From Escherichia coli O127:H6 str. E2348/69 (GTDB lineage Bacteria; Pseudomonadota; Gammaproteobacteria; Enterobacterales; Enterobacteriaceae), in NCBI RefSeq assembly GCF_000026545.1, contig NC_011601.1: DNA of 64,000 bases; one strand, given 5' to 3'. This document shows positions 2,409 to 58,494 of this stretch, one piece after another. A program made the position numbers and the translations under genes. Within the stretch, counting starts at the first letter, position 1. Each line of letters starts with the position of its first letter. The notes under the pieces are model-generated. The model was given only the letters and a program-made list of their open reading frames with translations. It was not told the origin of the DNA and did no database searches.

Positions 2409-3116
2409 ATGAATACCCAACGAAAATACGGGAGAACCTGGCATTACCCCTTCTCTCCAGGCACCACCAGCGATGACCGCATTAACACCGATTACTGGCA
2501 GGATTTAAAGGCCATCACGCAATTGGTGCACACAGAAAAACTCGATGGCGAAAATAACTGCCTTAACCGCTACGGCGTGTTTGCCCGCTCCCATGCCACG
2601 CCTACGCAGTCGGCATGGACCTATAAAATTCGCCAACGCTGGCAACTGCTGAAAAACGATCTCGGCGACCTGGAGTTGTTTGGTGAAAATCTCTACGCCG
2701 TTCATTCCATTGAATACCGCGCGCTGGAACAGGACTTTTACCTGTTTGCCGTTCGCTGCCAGGATATGTGGCTGAGCTGGGAAGAGGTGCAGTTTTACGC
2801 CGCTCTGTTTGATTTCCCCTGCGTTCCCGAAATCTCCGGCCCGCAGCCGGGGAATGATGAAAAAAGCTGGCAACGTGATTTTCTGGCGCTGGCCAATGCG
2901 CGCGGCACATTCGATCCCTGGGATACGCAAACCTGGCAACCCTGTACGCTGGAAGGCATTGTCAGCCGAAATCATGATGCGTTTTCTGTCGCTGACTTTT
3001 CGCATAACGTCTTCAAGTATGTGCGCAAAAATCATGTCAAAACCACTGTGCACTGGAAACGCCACTGGCAACGGGCGCGGATGGCCCATGAGTTCGTTTA
3101 TGGAGAACAGTCATGA
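2409..3116 (+). CDS. ATP-dependent RNA ligase family protein (nucleotidyltransferase domain)
   Basis: 235 aa ORF; covalent nucleotidyltransferase motif I K-x-D-G in TEKLDGEN; ligase-like FGENLY and KYVRK motifs; no K-12 counterpart at this locus. Confidence 0.65.
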
Positions 3117-4225
3117 TTTGGCAACTTACCGACGATAAACGCTGGTCGGCGCTACGTCAGCGTTTTAGCTGGGTTGAGGAGATGCATCACACGCCACAAG
3201 ACCCTGAGCATCATGGTGAAGGCGACGTCGGCGTACATACCGAAATGGTGCTTAACGCCCTCATTACTCTGCCAGAATTCCAGCAACTCCCCGCTCAACA
3301 GCAGGAAGTTTTATGGGCGGCGGTGTTATTGCATGATGTTGAAAAGCGCAGCACTACCGTGCAGGAAAACGGACGTATTCAGTCTCCTGGTCATGCTCGT
3401 CGGGGCGAACTGACGGCCCGACAAATTTTATGGCGCGATATCCCAACGCCGTTCGTGCTGCGCGAGCAAATTGTTGCACTGGTGCGTCTGCATGGGTTAC
3501 CGCTATGGTTACTGGAACGCCCGGAACCGGAGCGTTTGTTGCTCACGGCTGCAATGCGCATCGACACGCGTCTGCTCGCTTTGCTTGCTCGTGCCGATCT
3601 GCTTGGTCGCCAAAGCCCGGATCAGCAATCAATGCTGGAACGCATCGATCTGTTCGAGCTGTTTTGCCATGAGCAACAATGCTGGGGAAAAATGCGCCCG
3701 TTCGTTTCTGATTCCGCACGCTGGCATTACCTGACCCATGAGCAAAGTTCTCCTGATTTTGTTCCCTGGGGGGCTGAACCTTTTGAGGTTATTTTGCTGT
3801 GTGGCTTACCGGGTATGGGCAAAGATCGCTATATCAGTGAACAGTGCCAGGGAATTGACGTTATCAGCCTTGATGATATGCGGCGGCGAATCAATGCCAG
3901 CCCGGATGACAAAACCGCTACCGGGCGTATTGTGCAACAGGCAAAAGAAGAGGCGCGCGTTTTTTTACGCCAGAAAAAGCCGTTCATCTGGAATGCAACG
4001 AACATTACCCGCCAGCTGCGTAGCCAGCTCATCAGTCTGTTTACGGCTTACGGCGCACGAGTAAAAATCGTTTATCTGGAAGTGCCATGGGCGCAATGGA
4101 AGCAGCAAAATGCCAGACGCGAGTATGCAGTTCCTGAAGCGGTCGTGATGCGGATGGCCTCAAGGCTGGAAGTTCCTCAACCTGATGAAGCACATAGCGT
4201 GGAGTATCGGGTGATTGAAAGGTAA
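3113..4225 (+). CDS. HD-domain phosphohydrolase fused to P-loop kinase-like domain (putative RNA end-healing enzyme)
   Basis: 370 aa ORF; start overlaps upstream stop (ATGA); N-terminal H..HD motifs ([17 protein letters not shown]); C-terminal Walker A-like [10 protein letters not shown]. Confidence 0.65.
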
Positions 4226-4247
4226 ATAAATATCCTCCGGCATAGCC

Positions 4248-5797
4248 CTGTCTCTTATACACAAATCCCCACCCGGGGATTTGTGATGTCTGTCAGTCTG
4301 CTTTAGGGGGACTCTTTCCATCCGGTAGTTTCCTTCCTCCCCGGCAGCGATTTTTTGAACTTTTTCCTCACCTGTTGATCTTCTCTTATATTTCATTTTC
4401 TTCGGGTCTGTTATGGTACTTTCTGATTGTTATTCATGGGCTAACGAGCAGTTTGGACATGCCCGTCTCGGTGATCCGCGTCGTACACGACGCCTTGTGT
4501 CACTGGCCTCTTCTCTCGCTCAGCATGCAGGTCTTTCTATTGTGAAATCATCCCAGTCCACTGCTCAGGTTGAAGGTGCGTACCGCCTGATACGTAACCC
4601 GTCTGTGTCCCCGCAAGCCATTGCCGAAGCCGGATTTACCGCCACTGTAAGGGCATGTGAGGCTCATCCGCTGCTCCTCGCGCTGGAAGACACCACCACC
4701 ATTAACTTCAGTCACAGTACGGCATCTGATGACCTGGGGAATACCACCACTAACCCGAAGACGCGCGGGCTGCTGGCTCACTCTGTCCTGATGTACGCCC
4801 CCGACAGCGCCCTGCCAGTCGGTCTTATCGAACAGCAGCGCTGGAGTCGTGCCACGGACACCTACGGTGTTAAGCACCAGCGAAAAGAACGTCCCTATGA
4901 AGAAAAAGAAAGTTACCGCTGGCAGCAGGCTTCGGAGCGCATGGCCGAACGGCTGGGGGAGATACAGAAACGGGTAATCACTGTCTGTGACCGGGAAGCG
5001 GATATCTGGCATTACCTGCATTATAAAGTCAGCCACGGGCAGCGCTTCGTGGTGCGTGCAGCACAGAATCGCCGGCTGGAAGAAGCACCCGGCAAGCTCT
5101 TCGAACTGCCGGAAGTCCTGGCAACCGCGGGAAGCCACACGCTGAATGTGATGCAAAAAGGCGGGCGGGCAGCCCGCCAGGCCCGGATGTTCATCAGTTA
5201 CAGCGAAGTCAGCATAAAAAATCCCGACAACAGCGGCCAGGCGCTCCCGCTCACGTATGTCTGTTGCCGGGAGCAGGCAGAGGACGGCGCCTGCTGGCAT
5301 CTGCTGACGTCAGAAAAAGTGGCGAGTGCCGCCGATGCGCGACGTATCGTCAGCCATTACGAGCGACGCTGGCTGATAGAGGAATACCACAAGGCGTGGA
5401 AAAGTGGTGGTACATGTGTGGAATCGCTGCGAATGCAGACCCGGGATAACCTCGAGCGCATGGTGGTTATCAAGGCGTTTATCGCGGTGCGGGTGCTGGG
5501 CCTGCGGCAGGGCGGTATCAGTGAAGAAACACAAAATGACAGCTGTGAGAAAATACTGACGCCGACAGAGTGGAAACTGCTGTGGGTTAAGCTGGAAGGA
5601 AAACCGCTTCCGTCACAGATGCCGACACTGAAATGGGCCTGTCTGAAACTGGCGAAACTGGGGCGATGGCATGACAGCAAACGCACCGGTCGCCCCGGTT
5701 GGGTAGTCATGTGGGATGGCTGGTTCAGACTTCAGGATATGGTTGAGGGTTACCTGGTGATGAAGTCTCTTGATCAGGAGATCTGATCAAGAGACAG
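4248..5797 (+). mobile_element. IS4-family IS50(Tn5)-like insertion sequence, copy 1 (1550 bp)
   Basis: Ends CTGTCTCTTATACACAAATCC and AGATCTGATCAAGAGACAG (the latter matching the Tn5 inside end as recalled); 9-10 bp duplication cggcatagcc; identical to copy 2. Confidence 0.85.
4413..5786 (+). CDS. IS4-family DDE transposase (Tn5 Tnp-like)
   Basis: 457 aa; Tn5 transposase-like motifs GDPRRT, VCDREADI, RWLIEEYHKAWKSGG, DNLERMV, DSKRTG. Confidence 0.88.
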   Translation: MVLSDCYSWANEQFGHARLGDPRRTRRLVSLASSLAQHAGLSIVKSSQSTAQVEGAYRLIRNPSVSPQAIAEAGFTATVRACEAHPLLLALEDTTTINFSHSTASDDLGNTTTNPKTRGLLAHSVLMYAPDSALPVGLIEQQRWSRATDTYGVKHQRKERPYEEKESYRWQQASERMAERLGEIQKRVITVCDREADIWHYLHYKVSHGQRFVVRAAQNRRLEEAPGKLFELPEVLATAGSHTLNVMQKGGRAARQARMFISYSEVSIKNPDNSGQALPLTYVCCREQAEDGACWHLLTSEKVASAADARRIVSHYERRWLIEEYHKAWKSGGTCVESLRMQTRDNLERMVVIKAFIAVRVLGLRQGGISEETQNDSCEKILTPTEWKLLWVKLEGKPLPSQMPTLKWACLKLAKLGRWHDSKRTGRPGWVVMWDGWFRLQDMVEGYLVMKSLDQEI

Positions 5798-5893: not shown

Positions 5894-6352
5894 TTACTTA
5901 CGGCCCGTAAACGGGCTGCCCGGATAGGGAATCGATAACTGCTCTCCCATTTTATCCTCTTCAAGCTGGTGCTTTATGTAATCCTGTATCTTCGCCGTGT
6001 TCTTACCCACCGTATCGACGTAATACCCTCTGCACCAGAACTCCCTGTTCCTGTACTTGAATTTCAAATCACCAAACTGCTCGTAAAGCATCAGACTGCT
6101 TTTCCCTTTCAGATATCCCATAAAGCCGGATACGCTCATTTTGGGCGGGATCTCCACAAGCATATGGATATGATCTGCACAGCATTCAGCTTCCAGAATC
6201 CGTACACTTTTCCACTCACACAGCTTTCTCAAAATACAGCCTATTGCTCTACGCTTCTCTCTGTAGAACACCTGTCTTCGGTATTTTGGCGCAAATACTA
6301 TGTGATATTTACAGTTCCATCGGGTGTGCGCTAAGCTCTTTTCGTTCCCCAT
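5894..6352 (-). CDS. tnpA: IS200-family transposase TnpA (Y1 HuH)
   Basis: MGNEKSLAHTRWNCKYHIVFAPKYRR N-terminus, HIHMLV HuH motif, C-terminal catalytic Tyr region; ORF 5894..6403 with start at internal Met. Confidence 0.85.
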   Translation of the reverse strand: MGNEKSLAHTRWNCKYHIVFAPKYRRQVFYREKRRAIGCILRKLCEWKSVRILEAECCADHIHMLVEIPPKMSVSGFMGYLKGKSSLMLYEQFGDLKFKYRNREFWCRGYYVDTVGKNTAKIQDYIKHQLEEDKMGEQLSIPYPGSPFTGRK

Positions 6353-6544
6353 TGGGACCCCCTTTTGATTTCTTGTTTGACACTTGCAGTTGCCAGACCG
6401 CAAGGTGTTTTAACAAATCAAAAGGGGTTTTAATAACTGGCTCAAAGCTGAAAGCTTTCCGGAACCCCCAGCCTAGCTGGGGGTTTTCTGTGCACAAAAA
6501 ACCGGGCGGTGGTGTCACCTGCCCGGCTTCTTTTGTTCCACTGA

Positions 6545-45901: not shown

Positions 45902-47980
45902 ATGTCATATACACCGATGAGTGATCTCGGACAGCAAGGGTTGTTCGACATCACTCGGACACTATTGCAGCAGCCCGATCTGGCCTCGCTGTGTGAGGCT
46001 CTTTCGCAACTGGTAAAGCGTTCTGCGCTCGCCGACAACGCGGCTATTGTGTTGTGGCAAGCGCAGACTCAACGTGCGTCTTATTACGCATCGCGTGAAA
46101 AAGACACCCCCATTAAATATGAAGACGAAACTGTTCTGGCACACGGTCCGGTACGCAGCATTTTGTCGCGCCCTGATACGCTGCATTGCAGTTACGAAGA
46201 ATTTTGTGAAACCTGGCCGCAGCTGGCCACAGGTGGGCTATACCCCAAATTTGGTCACTATTGCCTGATGCCACTGGCGGCGGAAGGGCATATTTTTGGT
46301 GGCTGTGAATTTATTCGTTATGACGATCGCCCCTGGAGCGAAAAAGAGTTCAATCGTCTGCAAACATTTACGCAGATCGTTTCTGTCGTCACCGAACAAA
46401 TCCAGAGCCGCGTCGTTAACAATGTCGACTATGAGTTGTTATGCCGGGAACGCGATAACTTCCGCATCCTGGTCGCCATCACTAACGCGGTGCTTTCCCG
46501 CCTGGATATGGACGAACTGGTCAGCGAAGTCGCCAAAGAAATCCATTACTATTTCGACATTGACGATATCAGCATCGTCTTACGCAGCCACCGTAAAAAC
46601 AAACTCAACATCTACTCCACTCACTATCTTGATAAACAGCATCCCGCTCACGAACAGAGCGAAGTCGATGAAGCCGGAACCCTCACCGAACGCGTCTTCA
46701 AAAGTAAAGAGATGCTGTTGATTAATCTCCACGAGCGGGACGATTTAGCCCCCTATGAACGCATGTTGTTCAACACCTGGGGCAACCAGATTCAAACCTT
46801 GTGCCTGTTACCGCTGATGTCTGGCGACACCATGCTGGGCGTGCTAAAACTGGCGCAATGCGAAGAGAAAGTCTTTACCACTACCAATCTGAATTTACTG
46901 CGCCAGATTGCCGAACGTGTGGCAATCGCTGTCGATAACGCCCTCGCCTATCAGGAAATTCATCGTCTGAAAGAACGGCTGGTTGATGAAAACCTCGCCC
47001 TGACCGAGCAGCTCAACAATGTTGATAGTGAATTTGGCGAGATTATTGGCCGCAGCGAAGCCATGTACAGCGTACTTAAACAAGTGGAAATGGTGGCGCA
47101 AAGTGACAGTACCGTTCTGATCCTCGGTGAAACTGGTACAGGTAAAGAGCTGATTGCCCGCGCGATCCATAATCTCAGTGGGCGTAATAATCGCCGCATG
47201 GTCAAAATGAACTGCGCGGCGATGCCTGCCGGATTGCTGGAGAGCGATCTATTTGGTCATGAGCGCGGGGCTTTTACCGGTGCCAGCGCTCAGCGCATTG
47301 GTCGTTTTGAACTGGCGAATAAAAGCTCACTATTCCTCGATGAAGTGGGCGATATGCCGCTGGAGTTACAGCCGAAGTTGCTGCGTGTATTACAGGAACA
47401 GGAGTTTGAACGTCTCGGCAGCAACAAAATCATTCAGACGGACGTACGTTTAATTGCCGCGACTAACCGCGATCTGAAAAAAATGGTCGCCGACCGAGAG
47501 TTCCGTAGCGATCTCTATTACCGTCTGAACGTATTCCCGATCCACCTGCCGCCACTACGCGAGCGTCCGGAAGATATTCCGCTGCTGGCGAAAGCCTTTA
47601 CCTTCAAAATTGCCCGTCGTCTGGGGCGCAATATCGACAGCATTCCTGCCGAGACGCTGCGCATCCTGAGCAACATGGAATGGCCGGGCAACGTGCGTGA
47701 GCTGGAAAACGTCATTGAGCGCGCGGTATTGCTAACACGCGGCAACGTGCTGCAGCTGTCATTGCCAGATATTGCTTTACCAAAACCTGAAACGCCGCCT
47801 GCCGCAACGGTTGTCGCCCAGGAGGGCGAAGATGAATATCAGTTGATTGTTCGCGTGCTGAAAGAAACAAACGGCGTGGTTGCCGGGCCTAAAGGCGCTG
47901 CGCAACGTCTGGGGCTGAAACGCACGACTCTGCTGTCACGGATGAAGCGACTGGGAATTGATAAATCGGCATTGATTTAA
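45902..47980 (+). CDS. fhlA: Formate hydrogenlyase transcriptional activator FhlA
   Basis: Start MSYTPMSDLGQQ at 45902; GAF domains, sigma-54 AAA+ ([14 protein letters not shown]) and HTH. Confidence 0.94.
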   Translation: MSYTPMSDLGQQGLFDITRTLLQQPDLASLCEALSQLVKRSALADNAAIVLWQAQTQRASYYASREKDTPIKYEDETVLAHGPVRSILSRPDTLHCSYEEFCETWPQLATGGLYPKFGHYCLMPLAAEGHIFGGCEFIRYDDRPWSEKEFNRLQTFTQIVSVVTEQIQSRVVNNVDYELLCRERDNFRILVAITNAVLSRLDMDELVSEVAKEIHYYFDIDDISIVLRSHRKNKLNIYSTHYLDKQHPAHEQSEVDEAGTLTERVFKSKEMLLINLHERDDLAPYERMLFNTWGNQIQTLCLLPLMSGDTMLGVLKLAQCEEKVFTTTNLNLLRQIAERVAIAVDNALAYQEIHRLKERLVDENLALTEQLNNVDSEFGEIIGRSEAMYSVLKQVEMVAQSDSTVLILGETGTGKELIARAIHNLSGRNNRRMVKMNCAAMPAGLLESDLFGHERGAFTGASAQRIGRFELANKSSLFLDEVGDMPLELQPKLLRVLQEQEFERLGSNKIIQTDVRLIAATNRDLKKMVADREFRSDLYYRLNVFPIHLPPLRERPEDIPLLAKAFTFKIARRLGRNIDSIPAETLRILSNMEWPGNVRELENVIERAVLLTRGNVLQLSLPDIALPKPETPPAATVVAQEGEDEYQLIVRVLKETNGVVAGPKGAAQRLGLKRTTLLSRMKRLGIDKSALI

Positions 47981-48024
47981 CAGATGTGGTTATACTCGAT
48001 CAACATTCAATGAAAGGAGGCAGT

Positions 48025-48453
48025 ATGGCAGTTTCAGCAAGAAATCAATTAACCGGAACAGTTAGCGCAGTAGCAATGGGCGCTGTGAATGATGAAGTAG
48101 AACTGACGCTGGCAGGTGGTGCAAAGCTGGTGGCAATTGTGACTCACAGCAGCCAGCAAGCGCTGGGTCTGGCGAAAGGGAAAGAAGCGATTGCCCTGAT
48201 TAAAGCCCCGTGGGTAACGCTGGCAACGGAAGACTGTGGACTGAAATTCTCTGCTCGCAACCAGTTTGCTGGCAGCGTGTCGACAATCACCGAAGGCGCA
48301 GTGAACGCCACTGTCCATATCAAAACGGATGCGGGTTTTGAAATTGTGGCAGTGGTAACAAATGAAAGTCAGGATGAAATGAAACTCACCACTGGCTCGC
48401 GCGTTATTGCATTGATCAAAGCATCAGCCATCCTGATTGCCACCAAAGCGTAA
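48025..48453 (+). CDS. Tandem TOBE/Mop-domain molybdate-binding protein
   Basis: Two about 70-aa repeats each starting SARNQ(L/F)xG(T/S)VS; start at MAVSARNQ; ORF-track start 47986. Confidence 0.7.
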   Translation: MAVSARNQLTGTVSAVAMGAVNDEVELTLAGGAKLVAIVTHSSQQALGLAKGKEAIALIKAPWVTLATEDCGLKFSARNQFAGSVSTITEGAVNATVHIKTDAGFEIVAVVTNESQDEMKLTTGSRVIALIKASAILIATKA

Positions 48454-48463
48454 GCGCCGTATT

Positions 48464-48487
48464 TGCCGGAGAGTATGGCTCTCCGGC
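48464..48487. terminator. Bidirectional hairpin terminator between the Mop gene and ygbA
   Basis: gccggagag-tatg-gctctccggc flanked by A/T runs. Confidence 0.55.
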
Positions 48488-48491
48488 AGAT

Positions 48492-48836
48492 TTATTTCTT
48501 TGGACGATATTTTTCTGGCAACTCCGGCACCGGACGCTTGTCATCGATGAGATGACGCACGGTTAAGATCGGATGACGCCACAGCATTCTCGGCCCGGCC
48601 CAACGCATAATCTGTTTCATCTCTTCACGCTTTGCAGGCTGGTAACAGTGCACCGGACACTGCTTACAGGCTGGTTTCTCTTCGCCGAACACACATTTAT
48701 CCAGCCGCTTTTGCGCGTAAGCAAACAACGCCTCGTAATGCTCCGGCTCTGCTGACGCCTGCGGGCATTTCGCTTGATAAAGATCGATCATTTTTTTAAT
48801 CGTCAGTTTTTCACGAGAGATACGCTTGCCGGACAT
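48492..48836 (-). CDS. ygbA: Cys-rich small protein YgbA
   Basis: 114 aa with Cys-rich motifs, position between fhlA and mutS. Confidence 0.8.
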   Translation of the reverse strand: MSGKRISREKLTIKKMIDLYQAKCPQASAEPEHYEALFAYAQKRLDKCVFGEEKPACKQCPVHCYQPAKREEMKQIMRWAGPRMLWRHPILTVRHLIDDKRPVPELPEKYRPKK

Positions 48837-49120
48837 GCTGCCTCCATACTCTAAGGTGCATTTATATTACAACTTAACTTTAAAGGGGACTATGGCTCTG
48901 AAGGAGGAGGTTTCTTCAACCGACGAATTTTGCAATCTTGTTTCATCGTCATCACGCAAAAGCTGTAAAGCAGCATTTTTCGCGGAACCGACATCAAGAA
49001 CTCACCTTTCGCGTCTTCCCCTGAAATGATTAACTCCGGTATCATGTGCGCCTTATGTGATTACAACGAAAATAAAAACCATCACACTACATTTAACATC
49101 AGGGAGCCGGACTTAACCCC

Positions 49121-51682
49121 ATGAGTACAATAGAAAATTTCGACGCCCATACGCCCATGATGCAGCAGTATCTCAAGCTGAAAGCCCAGCATCCCGAGAT
49201 CCTGCTGTTTTACCGGATGGGCGACTTTTATGAACTGTTTTATGACGACGCAAAACGGGCGTCGCAACTGCTGGATATTTCACTGACCAAACGCGGTGCT
49301 TCAGCGGGAGAGCCAATCCCGATGGCGGGGATTCCCTACCATGCGGTGGAAAACTACCTCGCCAAACTGGTGAATCAGGGCGAATCCGTCGCTATTTGTG
49401 AACAGATTGGCGATCCGGCGACCAGCAAAGGGCCGGTTGAGCGCAAAGTTGTCCGTATCGTTACGCCGGGCACCATCAGCGATGAAGCGCTGTTGCAGGA
49501 ACGTCAGGACAACCTGCTGGCGGCTATCTGGCAGGACAGTAAAGGTTTCGGCTACGCAACGCTGGATATCAGTTCCGGTCGTTTTCGCCTGAGCGAACCG
49601 GCAGACCGCGAAACGATGGCGGCAGAACTGCAACGTACGAATCCAGCGGAATTACTGTATGCGGAAGATTTCGCCGAGATGTCGCTGATTGAAGGTCGCC
49701 GCGGCCTGCGTCGTCGCCCGCTGTGGGAGTTTGAAATCGACACCGCTCGCCAGCAATTGAACCTGCAATTTGGCACTCGCGATCTGGTCGGTTTTGGTGT
49801 GGAGAACGCACCACGCGGACTTTGTGCTGCCGGTTGTCTGTTGCAGTATGCGAAAGATACCCAACGCACGACCCTGCCGCATATTCGTTCTATCACTATG
49901 GAACGTCAGCAGGACAGCATCATTATGGATGCCGCGACGCGTCGTAACCTGGAAATTACTCAGAACCTGGCCGGCGGTGCGGAAAATACGCTGACCTCAG
50001 TGCTCGACTGCACTGTAACGCCGATGGGTAGTCGTATGCTGAAACGCTGGCTGCATATGCCAGTGCGCGATACCCGCGTGTTGCTTGAGCGCCAGCAAAC
50101 TATTGGCGCATTGCAGGATTTCACCGCCGAGCTACAGCCGGTACTGCGTCAGGTCGGCGACCTGGAACGTATTCTGGCGCGTCTGGCGTTGCGTACCGCT
50201 CGCCCACGCGATCTGGCCCGTATGCGTCACGCTTTCCAGCAACTGCCGGAGTTGCGTGCGCAGTTAGAAAATGTCGATAGTGCACCGGTACAAGCGCTGC
50301 GTGAGAAGATGGGCGAGTTTGCCGAACTGCGCGACCTGCTGGAGCGAGCAATCATCGACACGCCGCCGGTGCTGGTACGCGATGGTGGTGTTATTGCGAC
50401 TGGTTATAACGAAGAACTGGATGAATGGCGTGCGCTGGCCGACGGCGCGACCGATTATCTGGAACGTCTGGAAGTCCGCGAGCGTGAACGTACCGGCCTG
50501 GACACGCTGAAAGTTGGCTTTAATGCGGTGCACGGCTACTACATTCAAATCAGCCGTGGGCAAAGCCATCTGGCACCAATCAACTACATGCGTCGCCAGA
50601 CGCTGAAAAACGCCGAGCGCTACATCATTCCAGAGCTAAAAGAGTACGAAGATAAAGTTCTCACCTCAAAAGGCAAAGCACTGGCTCTGGAAAAACAACT
50701 TTATGAAGAGCTGTTCGACCTGCTGTTGCCGCATCTGGAAGCGTTGCAACAGAGCGCGAGCGCGCTGGCGGAACTCGACGTGCTGGTGAACCTGGCGGAG
50801 CGGGCCTATACCCTGAACTACACCTGCCCGACCTTTATTGATAAACCTGGCATTCGCATTACCGAAGGTCGCCATCCGGTAGTTGAACAAGTACTGAATG
50901 AGCCGTTTATCGCTAACCCGCTGAACCTGTCGCCGCAGCGTCGCATGTTGATCATTACCGGTCCGAACATGGGAGGTAAAAGTACCTATATGCGCCAGAC
51001 CGCGTTGATTGCGCTGATGGCGTATATCGGCAGCTACGTACCGGCGCAAAAAGTCGAGATTGGCCCGATTGACCGTATCTTTACCCGCGTAGGTGCCGCG
51101 GATGATCTGGCTTCCGGGCGTTCAACCTTTATGGTGGAGATGACCGAAACCGCCAATATTTTACATAACGCCACCGAATACAGTCTGGTGTTGATGGACG
51201 AGATCGGGCGTGGAACGTCCACTTACGATGGTCTGTCGCTGGCGTGGGCATGCGCGGAAAATCTGGCAAATAAGATCAAAGCGTTGACGCTGTTTGCTAC
51301 CCACTATTTCGAGCTGACCCAGTTACCGGAGAAAATGGAAGGCGTCGCCAACGTGCATCTCGATGCACTGGAGCACGGCGACACCATTGCCTTTATGCAT
51401 AGCGTGCAGGATGGCGCAGCGAGCAAAAGCTACGGCCTGGCGGTTGCAGCTCTGGCGGGTGTGCCAAAAGAGGTTATTAAGCGCGCACGGCAAAAACTGC
51501 GTGAGCTGGAAAGCATTTCGCCGAACGCCGCTGCTACGCAAGTGGATGGTACACAAATGTCTTTGCTGTCCGTACCGGAAGAAACTTCGCCTGCGGTCGA
51601 GGCACTGGAAAACCTCGACCCGGATTCATTGACTCCGCGTCAGGCGCTGGAGTGGATTTATCGCTTGAAGAGTCTGGTGTAA
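49121..51682 (+). CDS. mutS: DNA mismatch repair protein MutS
   Basis: 853 aa; Walker [10 protein letters not shown]. Confidence 0.97.
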
Positions 51683-51787
51683 TAATAATTCCCAATAGCC
51701 TTTTGCTATCGGGAATATTAACGACAACTGACGAATCAAATAAAAATACCCTGTATAATAGGAAAGCTTATTTTACAGGGTAAAACC

Positions 51788-52444
51788 ATGCCATCTACAC
51801 GCTACCAAAAAATCAACGCCCATCACTATCGCCATATATGGACCGTTGGTGATATTCATGGTGACTATCAATTATTACAATCCCGCTTACATCAACTCTC
51901 TTTTTGTCCTGAAACCGACTTACTTATTTCGGTAGGCGATAACATCGATCGTGGGCCGGAGAGTCTTAACGTACTACGCCTGTTAAACCAGCCCTGGTTT
52001 ACATCGGTTAAAGGCAACCATGAAGCGATGGCGCTTGATGCATTCGAAACTGGCGATGGAAATATGTGGCTTGCCAGCGGTGGTGACTGGTTTTTCGATT
52101 TAAATGATTCAGAGCAACAAGAGGCAATAGATCTGTTGCTGAAATTCCATCACCTTCCACATATTATTGAAATCACTAACGACACCATAAAATATGTCAT
52201 CGCACATGCAGATTATCCGGGGAAGGAGTATCAGTTTGGCAAAGAAATAGCGGAGAGAGAATTACTCTGGCCTGTTGATCGTGTGCAGAAATCACTTAAT
52301 AGCGAATTACAAAAAATAAACGGCGCCGACTTCTTTATATTTGGTCATATGATGTTTGATAACATTCAGACGTTCGCTAACCAGATTTATATTGATACCG
52401 GATCGCCGAAAAGCGGGCGGCTGTCATTTTATAAAATAAAGTAG
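51788..52444 (+). CDS. pphB: Serine/threonine protein phosphatase 2 (PrpB)
   Basis: 218 aa metallophosphoesterase, GDIHGD and GDNIDRG motifs. Confidence 0.9.
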   Translation: MPSTRYQKINAHHYRHIWTVGDIHGDYQLLQSRLHQLSFCPETDLLISVGDNIDRGPESLNVLRLLNQPWFTSVKGNHEAMALDAFETGDGNMWLASGGDWFFDLNDSEQQEAIDLLLKFHHLPHIIEITNDTIKYVIAHADYPGKEYQFGKEIAERELLWPVDRVQKSLNSELQKINGADFFIFGHMMFDNIQTFANQIYIDTGSPKSGRLSFYKIK

Positions 52445-52494
52445 TCTCATGCTTCTTCTGTGAAGCATGAGTAACCCGGCGTTATTGCAGGTCA

Positions 52495-53292
52495 TTATTC
52501 ATTTTTCGCTACCAGCAAAGAGAGATCCAGCTTCGCCAGCGCGCGGCTGGCACTCTCCGGCAGACCATCGTCAGTAATGATCTGATCAAACTCGCTTAAT
52601 GGTAACGCCAGCCATGTCGCCACCTGTCCATATTTCGTCGCATCACAGACCAAAACTCGCTGGCGGCTGGCACTGGCAATCGCCCGTTTCACCGTGACTT
52701 TATCTTCTGCTGGCGTAGAGATCCCCCGCACACTCCATGACGATGCAGAAATAAAAGCCTGATCAATCATCAGGCTACGCAGCATGGTCGCAGCGGCTTC
52801 CCCAACACAGGAACGGTTTTCCCGACACACTGCGCCGCCAGTGTGAATAATTGTGCAATTACTGTTGTCGAGCAAGTAGTCCGCAATAACGAAGTCGTTA
52901 GTAACCACTGTGAGTGGCTCCATGTGAATCAGATGCTGTGCAATCGCTAACGTGGTCGTTCCCGCATCCAGATAGATACAACGTCCCGGCTGAACAAGAC
53001 TTGCCGCCAGCTTGCCAATAGCCGCTTTTTGCGTCATTGCCAGCGCAGTTTTTACCTGATGAGAAGGTTCATGCGCCACGCGTCCCGGAGACTGGACGCC
53101 TCCGGACACCAGCACAACGGCTCCCTGCTGCTCCAGTTTTTGTAAATCCCGACGAATAGTCATATGTGACACATTCATTCTGTCCGTTAGTTCAGCAATA
53201 CTGACAATGCCTTTTTCAGCTACCATCTCAAGGATGATTTGGCGACGCTCTACGGGTATCAACTTTTGCTCCTTCCTTTGTCCTGCGGACAT
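52495..53292 (-). CDS. ygbI: DeoR-family transcriptional regulator YgbI (true start may lie about 10 codons downstream)
   Basis: 265 aa ORF with N-terminal HTH and DeoR sugar-binding domain. Confidence 0.85.
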   Translation of the reverse strand: MSAGQRKEQKLIPVERRQIILEMVAEKGIVSIAELTDRMNVSHMTIRRDLQKLEQQGAVVLVSGGVQSPGRVAHEPSHQVKTALAMTQKAAIGKLAASLVQPGRCIYLDAGTTTLAIAQHLIHMEPLTVVTNDFVIADYLLDNSNCTIIHTGGAVCRENRSCVGEAAATMLRSLMIDQAFISASSWSVRGISTPAEDKVTVKRAIASASRQRVLVCDATKYGQVATWLALPLSEFDQIITDDGLPESASRALAKLDLSLLVAKNE

Positions 53293-53457
53293 TCTACGCT
53301 ATTTGCCTGCGAAACGTGCGCGGCGCAACTAACGCTTAGTTCACATAAAATAACACACAATGTTAATTTTTGTGAATCAGCTCACCATATCGTTATCTTT
53401 CCGCGCTTATATTCACAACATCAAACAAAATATCACTTAAATTAACAAGGAGAGCAG

Positions 53458-54366
53458 ATGAAAACGGGATCGGAGTTTCATGTCGGTATCGTTGGCTTAG
53501 GGTCAATGGGAATGGGAGCAGCACTGTCATGTGTCCGCGCAGGTCTTTCTACCTGGGGCGCAGACCTGAACAGCAATGCCTGCGCTACGTTGAAAGAGGC
53601 TGGTGCTTGCGGAGTTTCTGATAACGCCGCGACGTTTGCCGAAAAACTGGACGCTCTGCTGGTGCTGGTGGTCAATGCGGCCCAGGTTAAACAGGTGCTG
53701 TTTGGTGAAAAAGGCGTTGCACAACATCTAAAACCCGGTACGGCAGTAATGGTTTCTTCCACTATCGCCAGTGCTGATGCGCAAGAAATTGCTACCGCTC
53801 TGGCTGGATTCGGTCTGGAAATGCTGGATGCGTCGGTTTCTGGTGGTGCGGTAAAAGCCGCTAATGGTGAAATGACTGTCATGGCCTCCGGTAGCGATAT
53901 TGCCTTTGAACGACTGGCACCCGTGCTGGAAGCCGTTGCCGGAAAAGTTTATCGCATCGGTTCAGAACCGGGACTGGGTTCGACCGTAAAAATTATCCAC
54001 CAGTTGTTAGCGGGCGTACATATTGCTGCCGGAGCCGAAGCGATGGCGCTTGCAGCCCGTGCGGGGATCCCGCTGGATGTGATGTATGACGTCGTGACCA
54101 ATGCCGCCGGAAATTCATGGATGTTCGAAAACCGGATGCGTCATGTGGTGGATGGCGATTACACCCCGTATTCAGCCGTCGATATTTTTGTTAAGGATCT
54201 TGGTCTGGTTGCCGATACCGCCAAAGCCCTGCACTTCCCGCTGCCATTGGCCTCAACAGCATTGAATATGTTCACCAGCGCCAGTAACGCGGGTTACGGG
54301 AAAGAAGACGATAGCGCAGTTATCAAGATTTTCTCTGGCATCACTCTACCGGGAGCGAAATCATGA
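53458..54366 (+). CDS. ygbJ: L-threonate dehydrogenase (3-hydroxyisobutyrate dehydrogenase family)
   Basis: 302 aa, Rossmann GIVGLGSMG. Confidence 0.9.
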   Translation: MKTGSEFHVGIVGLGSMGMGAALSCVRAGLSTWGADLNSNACATLKEAGACGVSDNAATFAEKLDALLVLVVNAAQVKQVLFGEKGVAQHLKPGTAVMVSSTIASADAQEIATALAGFGLEMLDASVSGGAVKAANGEMTVMASGSDIAFERLAPVLEAVAGKVYRIGSEPGLGSTVKIIHQLLAGVHIAAGAEAMALAARAGIPLDVMYDVVTNAAGNSWMFENRMRHVVDGDYTPYSAVDIFVKDLGLVADTAKALHFPLPLASTALNMFTSASNAGYGKEDDSAVIKIFSGITLPGAKS

Positions 54367-55625
54367 TCAAGATTGGCGTTATCGCCGATGATTTTACCGG
54401 CGCGACGGATATCGCCAGTTTTCTGGTGGAAAACGGTCTACCAACGGTACAAATTAACGGTGTTCCAACAGGTAAAATGCCGGAAGCAATCGACGCACTG
54501 GTGATCAGCCTGAAAACGCGCTCCTGTCCGGTGGTTGAAGCCACACAGCAATCGCTGGCGGCTCTGAGCTGGTTGCAACAGCAAGGTTGCAAACAGATCT
54601 ATTTCAAATACTGCTCTACTTTCGACAGTACGGCGAAAGGGAATATCGGCCCAGTTACCGATGCATTAATGGATGCTCTCGACACACCGTTTACGGTCTT
54701 CTCTCCGGCCCTGCCAGTCAACGGACGTACGGTTTATCAGGGGTATTTGTTCGTAATGAATCAACTGCTGGCCGAATCCGGAATGCGCCATCACCCGGTA
54801 AATCCCATGACCGACAGCTATCTTCCCCGTCTGGTTGAAGCGCAATCCACAGGGCGCTGCGGCGTCGTTTCAGCACATGTTTTCGAACAAGGTGTGAAAG
54901 CCGTTCGTCAGGAGCTGGCTCGCTTACAGCAAGAGGGCTATCGCTACGCGGTGCTTGATGCGCTGACCGAACACCATCTGGAAATTCAGGGAGAAGCCTT
55001 GCGCGATGCCCCACTGGTAACGGGCGGTTCTGGTCTGGCGATTGGCCTTGCCCGGCAGTGGGCGCAAGAAAACGGTAACCAGGCTCGCAAAGCAGGGCAT
55101 CCGCTCGCTGGGCGCGGCGTAGTGCTCTCCGGTTCATGCTCTCAAATGACCAACCACCAGGTAGCACATTACCGTCAAATTGCACCAGCCCGTGAAGTTG
55201 ATGTGGCACGCTGCCTCTCAACCGAAACTCTGGCCGCTTATGCACACGAGCTGGCAGAGTGGGTTCTGGGCCAGGAAAGTGTACTTGCTCCACTGGTTTT
55301 TGCCACCGCCAGCACTGACGCATTGGCAGCAATTCAACAGCAATACGGTGCACAAAAAGCCAGTCAGGCAGTAGAAACTCTGTTTTCTCAACTAGCGGCG
55401 CGGTTAGCAGCGGAAGGCGTGACACGCTTTATTGTCGCAGGCGGTGAGACCTCCGGCGTAGTCACACAGAGCCTGGGCATAAAAGGTTTTCATATTGGCC
55501 CAACCATTTCCCCCGGCGTGCCGTGGGTAAACGCACTGGATAAGCCTGTCTCACTCGCCCTTAAATCTGGCAACTTCGGTGATGAAGCCTTTTTTTCACG
55601 AGCCCAAAGAGAGTTTTTATCATGA
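54363..55625 (+). CDS. ygbK: 3-oxo-tetronate kinase (four-carbon acid sugar kinase family)
   Basis: 420 aa, operon position. Confidence 0.88.
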   Translation: MIKIGVIADDFTGATDIASFLVENGLPTVQINGVPTGKMPEAIDALVISLKTRSCPVVEATQQSLAALSWLQQQGCKQIYFKYCSTFDSTAKGNIGPVTDALMDALDTPFTVFSPALPVNGRTVYQGYLFVMNQLLAESGMRHHPVNPMTDSYLPRLVEAQSTGRCGVVSAHVFEQGVKAVRQELARLQQEGYRYAVLDALTEHHLEIQGEALRDAPLVTGGSGLAIGLARQWAQENGNQARKAGHPLAGRGVVLSGSCSQMTNHQVAHYRQIAPAREVDVARCLSTETLAAYAHELAEWVLGQESVLAPLVFATASTDALAAIQQQYGAQKASQAVETLFSQLAARLAAEGVTRFIVAGGETSGVVTQSLGIKGFHIGPTISPGVPWVNALDKPVSLALKSGNFGDEAFFSRAQREFLS

Positions 55626-56260
55626 GCGATTTCGCAAAAGTAGAGCAGTCTTTGCGAGAGGAGATGACGCGGATTGCCAGTTCATTCTTTCAGCGCGGAT
55701 ATGCAACCGGTTCGGCTGGCAATCTGTCGCTGCTTTTACCTGACGGGAATTTACTGGCGACACCGACAGGTTCATGCCTGGGCAATCTCGATCCGCAGCG
55801 GCTTTCCAAAGTCACCGCGGATGGCGAATGGTTAAGTGGTGACAAACCCTCGAAAGAGGTGCTCTTTCATCTGGCGCTGTACCGCAACAATCCGCGCTGT
55901 AAAGCGGTAGTGCATTTGCACAGTACGTGGTCGACGGCGCTTTCCTGCCTGGAAGGGCTGGACAGCAATAACGTTATTCGGCCGTTCACACCATACGTGG
56001 TGATGCGGATGGGAAACGTCCCGCTGGTGCCCTATTACCGACCGGGCGATAAACGCATCGCACAGGATCTGGCGGAACTGGCAGCAGACAATCAGGCTTT
56101 TTTACTGGCAAATCATGGCCCAGTGGTTTGCGGTGAAAGCCTGCAAGAAGCCGCCAACAATATGGAAGAGCTGGAGGAAACGGCAAAGCTGATTTTTATT
56201 CTCGGTGACCGCCCGATCCGTTATCTGACCGCAGGTGAAATTGCGGAATTAAGGAGTTAA
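55622..56260 (+). CDS. ygbL: 3-oxo-tetronate 4-phosphate decarboxylase (class II aldolase/adducin family)
   Basis: 212 aa, operon position. Confidence 0.88.
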
Positions 56261-56264
56261 TGCA

Positions 56265-57041
56265 ATGCCTCGTTTTGCAGCTAATTTATCCATGATGTTC
56301 ACCGAAGTGCCTTTTATTGAACGCTTCGCCGCAGCGCGAAAAGCCGGGTTCGATGCTGTGGAGTTTCTGTTTCCCTATGGCTACTCCCCCCAGCAAATCC
56401 AGCAGCAACTGGTGCAAAACCATCTGACACTGGCGCTGTTCAATACCGCTCCCGGAGATATTAATGCGGGAGAATGGGGATTATCCGCCCTTCCCGGACG
56501 TGAGCACGAAGCACGCGCAGACATCGACCTGGCACTGGAATATGCATTGGCGCTCAATTGTGAACAAGTCCATGTGATGGCAGGCGTCGTGCCCGCTGGC
56601 GAAGATGCTGAACGGTACCGGGGAGTATTTATTGATAATCTCCGCTACGCTGCCGACCGCTTTGCGCCACACGGCAAGCGAATATTGGTTGAAGCACTCA
56701 GCCCCGGCGTTAAGCCTCATTATCTCTTCTCCAGCCAGTATCAGGCACTGGCTATTGTTGAAGAGGTTGCGCGAGATAACGTGTTTATTCAACTGGATAC
56801 TTTCCATGCGCAAAAAGTAGATGGCAACCTGACACATTTAATCCGCGACTACGCCGGGAAATATGCGCACGTACAAATTGCCGGACTACCTGATCGACAT
56901 GAACCGGACGATGGAGAAATCAACTATCCGTGGCTGTTCCGCCTGTTCGATGAAGTGGGATATCAGGGCTGGATCGGTTGTGAATACAAACCTCGTGGCC
57001 TCACCGAAGAAGGGCTTGGCTGGTTTGACGCCTGGCGCTAA
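56265..57041 (+). CDS. ygbM: 2-oxo-tetronate isomerase (hydroxypyruvate isomerase family)
   Basis: 258 aa, TIM-barrel xylose-isomerase-like. Confidence 0.88.
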
Positions 57042-57129
57042 TTCGCTCAATCCCTAATTACAACGTACCCATACATCCCCCCATCTACGGATGGGGTAGG
57101 TTAACTATAACTTTCAGACAGGGTTTCCC

Positions 57130-58494
57130 ATGTCCACAATTACATTGTTATGCATTGCGTTAGCTGGCGTAATCATGCTGTTGCTACTGGTCATCAAGGC
57201 AAAGGTACAACCATTCGTTGCTCTGCTCCTCGTCAGCCTGTTAGTCGCACTTGCGGCGGGTATACCGGCGGGCGAAGTGGGTAAAGTGATGATCGCCGGG
57301 ATGGGCGGTGTGCTTGGTTCCGTCACTATTATTATTGGTCTGGGCGCTATGCTGGGGCGTATGATCGAACACTCTGGTGGTGCAGAGTCACTGGCTAATT
57401 ATTTCAGTCGCAAGCTAGGTGACAAACGAACTATCGCTGCGCTGACTCTGGCAGCGTTCTTCCTCGGTATTCCCGTCTTCTTTGATGTCGGCTTTATTAT
57501 TCTTGCGCCAATCATTTACGGTTTTGCCAAGGTTGCCAAAATATCACCACTCAAATTTGGCCTGCCTGTCGCTGGGATCATGCTCACTGTTCACGTGGCG
57601 GTACCGCCGCATCCAGGCCCTGTCGCCGCAGCGGGGTTACTCCACGCAGACATCGGCTGGCTAACCATCATCGGTATTGCGATTTCTATTCCCGTAGGGA
57701 TTGTTGGCTACTTTGCAGCGAAAATAATCAATAAGCGCCAATATACGATGTCGGTCGAGGTACTGGAACAGATGCAACTGGCTCCGGCCAGTGAGGAAGG
57801 CGCGACAAAATTAAGCGATAAAATAAATCCACCGGGCGTCGCGCTGGTCACCTCGCTAATTGTTATTCCTATCGCGATTATCATGGCGGGTACGGTTTCC
57901 GCAACACTGATGCCGCCTTCGCATCCCCTGCTTGGTACGCTACAGCTGATCGGCTCACCAATGGTAGCTCTAATGATTGCGCTGGTGCTGGCATTCTGGT
58001 TATTGGCTTTACGTCGCGGCTGGAGCTTACAACACACCAGCGACATTATGGGCTCAGCCCTTCCCACTGCGGCGGTAGTGATTTTGGTTACTGGTGCTGG
58101 AGGGGTATTTGGCAAAGTGCTGGTGGAATCGGGCGTCGGTAAAGCCCTTGCCAACATGTTACAAATGATTGACCTGCCTCTGTTACCAGCCGCATTTATT
58201 ATTTCACTGGCGCTGCGTGCATCGCAGGGGTCAGCAACCGTAGCAATCCTGACAACCGGCGGGTTACTCTCAGAAGCGGTGATGGGATTGAATCCAATTC
58301 AGTGCGTATTGGTGACGCTGGCAGCCTGCTTTGGTGGGCTTGGCGCGTCACATATTAATGACTCAGGGTTCTGGATTGTGACCAAATATCTGGGGTTGTC
58401 GGTAGCAGACGGGCTGAAAACCTGGACAGTGTTAACGACCATTCTCGGTTTTACCGGATTCTTAATTACCTGGTGCGTATGGGCGGTAATTTGA
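57130..58494 (+). CDS. ygbN: GntP-family permease YgbN
   Basis: 454 aa polytopic transporter. Confidence 0.9.
   Translation: MSTITLLCIALAGVIMLLLLVIKAKVQPFVALLLVSLLVALAAGIPAGEVGKVMIAGMGGVLGSVTIIIGLGAMLGRMIEHSGGAESLANYFSRKLGDKRTIAALTLAAFFLGIPVFFDVGFIILAPIIYGFAKVAKISPLKFGLPVAGIMLTVHVAVPPHPGPVAAAGLLHADIGWLTIIGIAISIPVGIVGYFAAKIINKRQYTMSVEVLEQMQLAPASEEGATKLSDKINPPGVALVTSLIVIPIAIIMAGTVSATLMPPSHPLLGTLQLIGSPMVALMIALVLAFWLLALRRGWSLQHTSDIMGSALPTAAVVILVTGAGGVFGKVLVESGVGKALANMLQMIDLPLLPAAFIISLALRASQGSATVAILTTGGLLSEAVMGLNPIQCVLVTLAACFGGLGASHINDSGFWIVTKYLGLSVADGLKTWTVLTTILGFTGFLITWCVWAVI

Follow-up and report, generated by a model that had tools for sequence, protein, structure and literature searches.

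The gene between fhlA and ygbA

The window analyzed here is a whole stretch of 64,000 nucleotides from Escherichia coli O127:H6 str. E2348/69. In it, fhlA, the gene for the transcriptional activator of formate hydrogenlyase (45902–47980, plus strand), has as its immediate downstream neighbor a coding sequence on the same strand (48025–48453, stop codon included), which is in turn followed by the convergent gene ygbA (48492–48836, minus strand). The intervening gene encodes a di-Mop (ModG-like) molbindin of 142 aa, RefSeq WP_000301062.1, and corresponds to c3292 of strain CFT073; we refer to it as the di-Mop gene. An earlier, sequence-only reading of the window had placed a gene between fhlA and ygbA, and both the list of open reading frames and the RefSeq annotation of strain N3 agree with this placement. 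The boundaries it had proposed, 47986–48453, held only in part: the open reading frame is real and intact, but position 47986 is the 5′ end of the longest open reading frame, and the gene is placed here at 48025.

In the six-frame list, the longest open reading frame (47986–48453, plus strand) would encode 155 aa from a GTG codon. However, translation almost certainly begins at the ATG at 48025, given the ribosome-binding site upstream of it, the RefSeq start, the starts of the orthologues, and the lack of protein conservation in the 39 nt before it. A strong Shine–Dalgarno sequence, AAAGGAGG (48013–48020, plus strand; read from the sequence), lies 4 nt before this ATG and is conserved as AAGGAG or GGAGG in the upstream regions of orthologues. 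RefSeq starts the 100%-identical copy in strain N3, named "TOBE domain-containing protein," at the equivalent ATG, and the 40+ orthologues from other genera are all 142 aa long, every one of them beginning at that codon. The GTG at 47986 was therefore rejected as a start, since the orthologues use the other codon and the 39 nt upstream of the ATG are unconserved as protein.

The spacer between fhlA and the di-Mop gene is 44 nt long (47981–48024, plus strand); neither a terminator scan nor folding (z-score −0.05) detected a terminator or a stable structure within it. A strong hairpin with a T-rich tract (48461–48501; −23.1 kcal/mol, z −4.9) was found by the same scan between the convergent di-Mop gene and ygbA, and alignment identifies it as a diverged homologue of the hairpin that directly follows fhlA in K-12.

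In K-12 MG1655, fhlA and ygbA are separated by only 36 bp, and a pairwise alignment revealed that 474 bp of the window (47979–48452), reaching from the fhlA stop codon to the di-Mop stop codon, are missing. The view in the sequence-only reading that K-12 has no such gene was thus correct, and a check against reference genomes found that the gene is not universally present at this locus, with K-12 among the genomes that lack it. The length polymorphism is visible in published typing data, in which the fhlA–mutS amplicon measures 1,673 bp in CFT073 versus 1,208 bp in MG1655 and EDL933 (PMC4209514). This 465-bp difference agrees with the 474-bp indel once a 9-bp difference in the length of ygbA is taken into account. 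YgbA itself is 114 aa long here versus 117 aa in K-12 (window 48492–48500 versus positions 6454–6470 of the K-12 locus), and divergence in the flanks of the indel is highest at the 3′ end of ygbA and in the terminator hairpin common to both genomes.

Several other features of the window were observed alongside. Between emrB (604–2151) and luxS (5894–6403, minus strand), three open reading frames occupy 2409–5786, namely an RNA-ligase-family protein (2409–3116; so annotated in strain N3), an AAA_33 kinase-like frame (3113–4225), and an IS4/Tn5-like transposase (4413–5786). K-12 is not known to have protein genes between emrB and luxS. Strain N3 has the RNA-ligase-family and AAA_33 frames and lacks the transposase; the two frames at 2409–3116 and 3113–4225 could form an RNA-repair or defense-type cassette. 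A small open reading frame on the minus strand (48890–49045), between ygbA and mutS, is annotated in the N3 RefSeq record as a 59-aa hypothetical protein (WP_000611940.1), and a Pfam search of it gave no match. The mutS–rpoS interval, a known polymorphic region (PMC4209514), spans about 51700–58000 by comparison with strain N3. In N3 it is a short variant, versus the ygbI–ygbN genes of K-12, and contains a hypothetical gene, pphB, genes for subunits D/C/B of hydroxyarylic acid decarboxylase, and a regulator of the MarR family; of these, pphB alone was confirmed within the window, at 51788–52444.

Domains, fold, and relatives of the encoded protein

The di-Mop protein consists of two tandem Mop/TOBE domains and no other domain within its 142 aa. 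A Pfam profile search returned two TOBE stretches (PF03459, E 8.8e-35), and an NCBIfam search returned two Mop domains (TIGR00638, E 4.1e-42). Domain 1 comprises residues 1–70 (48025–48234, plus strand; best Pfam stretch 4–66, TIGR00638 stretch 2–69), and domain 2, residues 73–142 (48241–48450, plus strand), corresponds to the second Pfam/TIGR00638 stretch and is 43% identical to domain 1 (E 4e-18). Both profile searches and this half-versus-half comparison bear out the view, already taken from the letters, of two TOBE repeats of about 70 residues.

The residues expected to contact a ligand are present in duplicate. Domain 1 carries S4-A-R6-N, A20-V21-N22, T40, and K60-A61, and domain 2 carries S76-A-R78-N, A92-V93-N94, T112, and K132-A133; in the alignment of enterobacterial orthologues, the ligand residues of both domains are invariant or nearly so. 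Their roles were transferred from the structure paper on Tub, in which a buried type-2 oxyanion site is formed by Ser4, Arg6, and Lys60-Ala61 together with Ser40 of the neighboring chain, a type-1 site on the threefold axis is formed by the backbone of Ala20-Val21-Asn22, and the oxyanion sites are stated to resemble those of Mop, ModE, and ModG (PMC11980592). An AlphaFold monomer model built from an 18-sequence input reached a pLDDT of 95.9, and the top three Foldseek matches of this model were ModG entries, with TM scores of 0.94–0.95. Together, fold, sequence, and ligand pattern class the di-Mop protein as ModG-like, with both domains predicted to be binding-competent; a preference for molybdate versus tungstate is not readable from the sequence.

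The closest relative of known structure is ModG of Azotobacter vinelandii (PDB 1H9J, 1H9K, and 1H9M), which is likewise a fusion of two Mop domains, about 140 aa in all, and nothing else. ModG 1H9J was the best PDB match (E 5e-33, query residues 1–140 on chain residues 4–143, 48–49% identity), superposes on the model with a TM score of 0.95 and an rmsd of 1.3 Å, ahead of the ModE di-Mop domain, and shares the SARN, AVN, T/S40, and KA motifs in both of its domains. The ModG type is further defined by a trimer with eight inter-subunit oxyanion sites. The genomic settings differ, as Azotobacter modG belongs to the mod region for molybdate transport and has ties to the physiology of nitrogenase and nitrate reductase, whereas the di-Mop gene follows fhlA in a hydrogenase-maturation and formate hydrogenlyase (FHL) cluster of a non-diazotroph.

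Other Mop-containing families resemble the protein in part. E. coli ModE, a paralogue within the same genome, has a di-Mop domain of the same tandem fold (PDB 1H9S, 1O7L, and 1B9M; TM ~0.89, 34–36% identity, E ~1e-15), but ModE also bears an N-terminal winged-helix DNA-binding domain that the di-Mop protein lacks, and in the same alignment the second Mop domain of ModE is without the SARN, TxxS, and KA motifs, all of which the di-Mop protein keeps. Identity with ModE was rejected, as the ModE profile NF007957 was matched only at positions 124–261 of 263, with 88 bits versus a cut-off of 369. The ABC-transporter ATPases ModC and WtpC have a homologous C-terminal TOBE domain; they, too, were rejected, there being no ATPase domain here and a match to only the C-terminal 60–70 profile positions (47–49 bits versus cut-offs of 285–440). 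Since the ModE and ModC/WtpC matches are limited to C-terminal TOBE parts and fall far under the cut-offs, the protein is neither a DNA-binding regulator nor a transporter ATPase. The single-domain Mop and Tub proteins of about 70 aa (Clostridium pasteurianum MopII 1GUG, S. ovata Mop 1FR3, and E. limosum Tub 9BEB) match each half with E values from 2e-9 to 3e-5 and have the same ligand numbering (S4, R6, A20-V21-N22, S/T40, and K60-A61). They form hexamers, to which a trimer of two fused domains would be the equivalent particle, and the presence of two domains in one chain sets the di-Mop protein apart from them.

The names in circulation do not reflect this assignment. Databases call the protein a TOBE domain-containing protein, a transporter, a molybdopterin-binding protein, or a molybdate transport system regulatory protein; "transporter" and "molybdate transport system regulatory protein" are over-annotations that should be read as ModG-like molbindin. 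In a PCR-typing study, c3292 of CFT073 is listed as "putative molybdenum-pterin-binding protein" (PMC4209514), and another paper labels the gene "modE" (PMC7232297), a mistaken label, judged by domain content, as the protein lacks a DNA-binding domain. A literature search found no functional study of the di-Mop protein, and the only full-text match to c3292 was PMC4209514. For ModG or molbindin in E. coli, only the Tub paper (PMC11980592) was found, and nothing relevant was returned for fhlA together with TOBE, or for molybdenum-pterin binding together with formate hydrogenlyase.

Distribution and history of the gene

Among 5,426 complete E. coli genomes, the di-Mop gene was present in 1,892 (35%), always on the chromosome and in single copy. 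Copies were essentially full length in 1,889 of the 1,892 carriers, the other 3 covering <80% of the query. An 86-bp junction probe detected the K-12-type empty junction in 3,501–3,502 of the same 5,426 genomes, such that carriers and K-12-type junctions together account for all but ~32. Named carriers are S88, CFT073, IAI39, and an O15:H18 ST69 strain, and named non-carriers are K-12, O157 strains, and EDL933. Any statement on phylogroups rests on these named strains, of which we take S88 and CFT073 to be B2, IAI39 to be F, and the O15:H18 ST69 strain to be D. The identical protein sequence was listed in the database on at least 1,000 contigs. One E. coli allele, shared by the ST69 strain, differs by 1.7% in DNA (its positions 340–768 versus window 48025–48453) and nevertheless encodes the identical WP_000301062.1, all differences within the coding sequence being synonymous.

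Beyond E. coli, a synteny scan with one genome per species yielded 49 loci with the gene, and in most of them, covering >12 genera, it stands right after fhlA. This was the arrangement, directly 3′ of fhlA, in E. albertii, an Escherichia cryptic-clade genome, eight Citrobacter species, Klebsiella, Raoultella, Kluyvera, Pluralibacter, Enterobacter, Lelliottia, Yokenella, and Kosakonia; in Phytobacter and Kosakonia sp. S29, the gene is located downstream of hypE. In the same genome pairs, dS and dN of the di-Mop gene were similar to those of hypD, hypE, fhlA, ygbA, and mutS; between the window and E. albertii, for example, its dS was 0.36, with neighbors at 0.27–0.64. Against 45 orthologues, dN/dS ranged from 0.03 to 0.12.

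The gene also occurs in other settings. In the loci of Raoultella sp. BIGb0138 and Enterobacter sp. BIGb0383, it comes directly after ascB, without hyc, hyp, or fhlA; in the Raoultella locus, we additionally observed an ABC metal-transporter operon, sitABCD-like as judged by eye, after the di-Mop gene. In Serratia, Cedecea, and Edwardsiella, it lies amid unrelated genes. Salmonella enterica has an 89%-identical copy away from fhlA (6001–6429 and 4025–4453 on two contigs) in an accessory island, with Oxidored_molyb and cytochrome-b (Ni_hydr_CYTB) genes, a TetR regulator, and a fimbrial usher as neighbors and, on one contig, an IS21 fragment. From these locations, it appears that some Salmonella have moved the gene or acquired it anew.

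Because synteny extends across genera, dS matches that of the neighbors, and dN/dS is low, the di-Mop gene is, on comparative grounds, an ancestral and vertically inherited occupant of the fhlA locus rather than an insertion, and the K-12 state is a derived deletion. The sharing of the same junction by 3,501 genomes favors a single deletion event as the simplest account of the K-12-type state, as judged from these sequences. A recent horizontal insertion in some E. coli lineages would make the carriers the derived state instead, and has in its favor that the fhlA–mutS region is a documented hotspot of gene gain and loss (PMC7232297), that carriers make up just over a third of E. coli genomes, and that the accessory island holding the Salmonella copies has an IS fragment next to them. 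However, the gene occupies the same position in E. albertii, the cryptic-clade genome, Citrobacter, Klebsiella, Kluyvera, Enterobacter, and others, its dS equals that of flanking core genes, the indel runs exactly from stop codon to stop codon with no mobile-element features, and the K-12-type genomes have one junction in common. On synteny and matching dS, horizontal acquisition in the carrier lineages was rejected, and we regard the insertion account as very improbable and already largely refuted. Even less credence, indeed next to none, is due to the idea that the open reading frame is decaying, or a remnant that no longer functions. The gene is dispensed with in two thirds of E. coli genomes, and there are the 3 truncated copies, but such a remnant would hardly combine the low dN/dS with an invariant length and start codon, a strong Shine–Dalgarno sequence, and diverged DNA alleles that encode an identical protein, found in exactly this form on so many contigs.

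Transcription, formate hydrogenlyase, and proposed role

We regard it as likely that the di-Mop gene encodes a ModG-type molbindin that is a putative molybdate buffer, is probably made together with hyp–fhlA, and, though ancestral, was lost by deletion from the K-12 lineage. Of this, the data show the domains and their fold, the conserved ligand residues, purifying selection on the gene, its synteny, its presence and absence counts, and where the terminator lies, whereas the oligomeric state, the binding of oxyanions, co-transcription with fhlA, and the role in the cell are inferred. By that analogy, the protein would be cytoplasmic and assemble as a trimer equivalent to the Mop hexamer, and the trimer would bind molybdate, and probably also tungstate, at inter-subunit sites. 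The oxyanion might then be buffered or stored for use in making the molybdenum cofactor. In Escherichia and most Enterobacteriaceae, the di-Mop gene would be the last gene before the hyp–fhlA terminator, so that the protein would probably be made alongside the FHL maturation and regulatory genes, at a time when the molybdoenzyme FDH-H, a component of FHL, is being built. The E. coli lineage to which K-12 and O157:H7 belong would then have lost the ancestral gene through one 474-bp deletion.

Co-transcription of the di-Mop gene with hyp–fhlA is likely, since the only terminator downstream of fhlA comes after the di-Mop gene. There may be a further signal. A possible −10 element, TATACT (47991–47996, plus strand; identified by inference, with no −35 match), lies 28 nt upstream of the ATG, and the same hexamer stands at identical distance in Escherichia, Citrobacter, and Pseudocitrobacter, with TATAAA there in two further genera. 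It may be the gene's own −10 element, belonging to a promoter that acts in addition to or instead of read-through from fhlA; a consensus scan of 47500–49150 found no sigma-70 consensus promoter. The ModE-box-like patterns TAYAT-N6-8-TAYAT and TATAT-N5-9-ATATA were absent from 47801–48030, which leaves ModE control of the gene unsupported. Azotobacter modG, for its part, is reportedly controlled by ModE.

The sequence-only reading had held a functional link to formate hydrogenlyase to be plausible. Synteny with fhlA in most of the 49 loci, the lack of a terminator before the gene and the placement of one after it, and the need of FHL for molybdate (PMC3149613) speak for such a link, but not for an obligate one, which is refuted by Serratia, Cedecea, Edwardsiella, and Salmonella, where the gene is located elsewhere, and by the loci that keep it without hyc–hyp–fhlA. 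K-12, moreover, makes active FHL without the gene, which is therefore dispensable for FHL in the laboratory. The best reading, by analogy, is a general cytoplasmic buffer of molybdate and tungstate that would be expressed with the FHL maturation and regulatory genes in most Enterobacteriaceae.

What the protein does with its oxyanion could be read otherwise. Resembling the di-Mop module of ModE but lacking a DNA-binding domain, it might be a regulatory molybdate sensor rather than a store, binding FhlA, ModE, or MoeA when loaded and so tuning the formate regulon to molybdenum. The conservation of the gene directly after fhlA in many genera would fit this, as would the superposition of the model on the ModE di-Mop domain, itself a regulatory sensor, at the TM score given above. 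In addition, full fdhF and hyc expression requires ModE and molybdate besides FhlA and formate, and FHL requires molybdate (PMC3149613). Yet this molybdate dependence of hyc and fdhF persists in K-12, which has no di-Mop gene, and the gene is retained where fhlA is absent; by sequence and by fold, the protein has ModG and not ModE as its nearer relative, and, unlike ModE but in common with storage proteins, it has kept the ligand motifs of both domains. We consider a sensor improbable. Distinctly improbable, too, is a mainly tungstate-binding (TudG-like) protein that sequesters tungstate and thereby protects molybdenum-cofactor synthesis: Mop-family proteins do bind tungstate as well as molybdate, structures of single-domain Tub are recognizable matches, and tungsten-binding ModG homologues have been proposed in gut bacteria (PMC11980592), but the sequence has nothing that separates a tungsten from a molybdenum preference, the nearest characterized relative is the molybdate protein ModG, and genes for a tungstate transporter or tungstoenzymes are absent from the neighborhood.

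Much about the di-Mop gene is already known, in that it is annotated, its polymorphism relative to K-12 is published, its family is structurally characterized, and it is an ordinary member of that family. The present analysis corrects the start codon, places the protein in the ModG type and not with ModE or a transporter, gives the polymorphism a polarity (the gene is ancestral, and the K-12 lineage deleted it), and sets limits to the link to FHL. More speculatively, and with an outside chance of being right, the presence or absence of the gene could make E. coli phylogroups differ in their handling of molybdate and tungstate, with the gene in the B2 strains, IAI39, the ST69 strain, and other Escherichia species and missing from K-12, O157:H7, and relatives. 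In carriers, FDH-H/FHL and other molybdoenzymes would stay active when molybdate is lower or tungstate is a challenge, or FhlA/ModE control of the formate regulon would be informed of molybdate status directly by the protein. If true, such a difference would bear on fitness in the gut and urinary tract and on tungstate-based suppression of Enterobacteriaceae. A neighbor of hyp–fhlA that is ancestral and strongly conserved is absent from the K-12 reference, and work on molybdenum homeostasis or FHL carried out in K-12 or BL21 alone is blind to it. Should the di-Mop protein act as a buffer of molybdate or tungstate, E. coli lineages could differ in anaerobic metabolism partly on its account.
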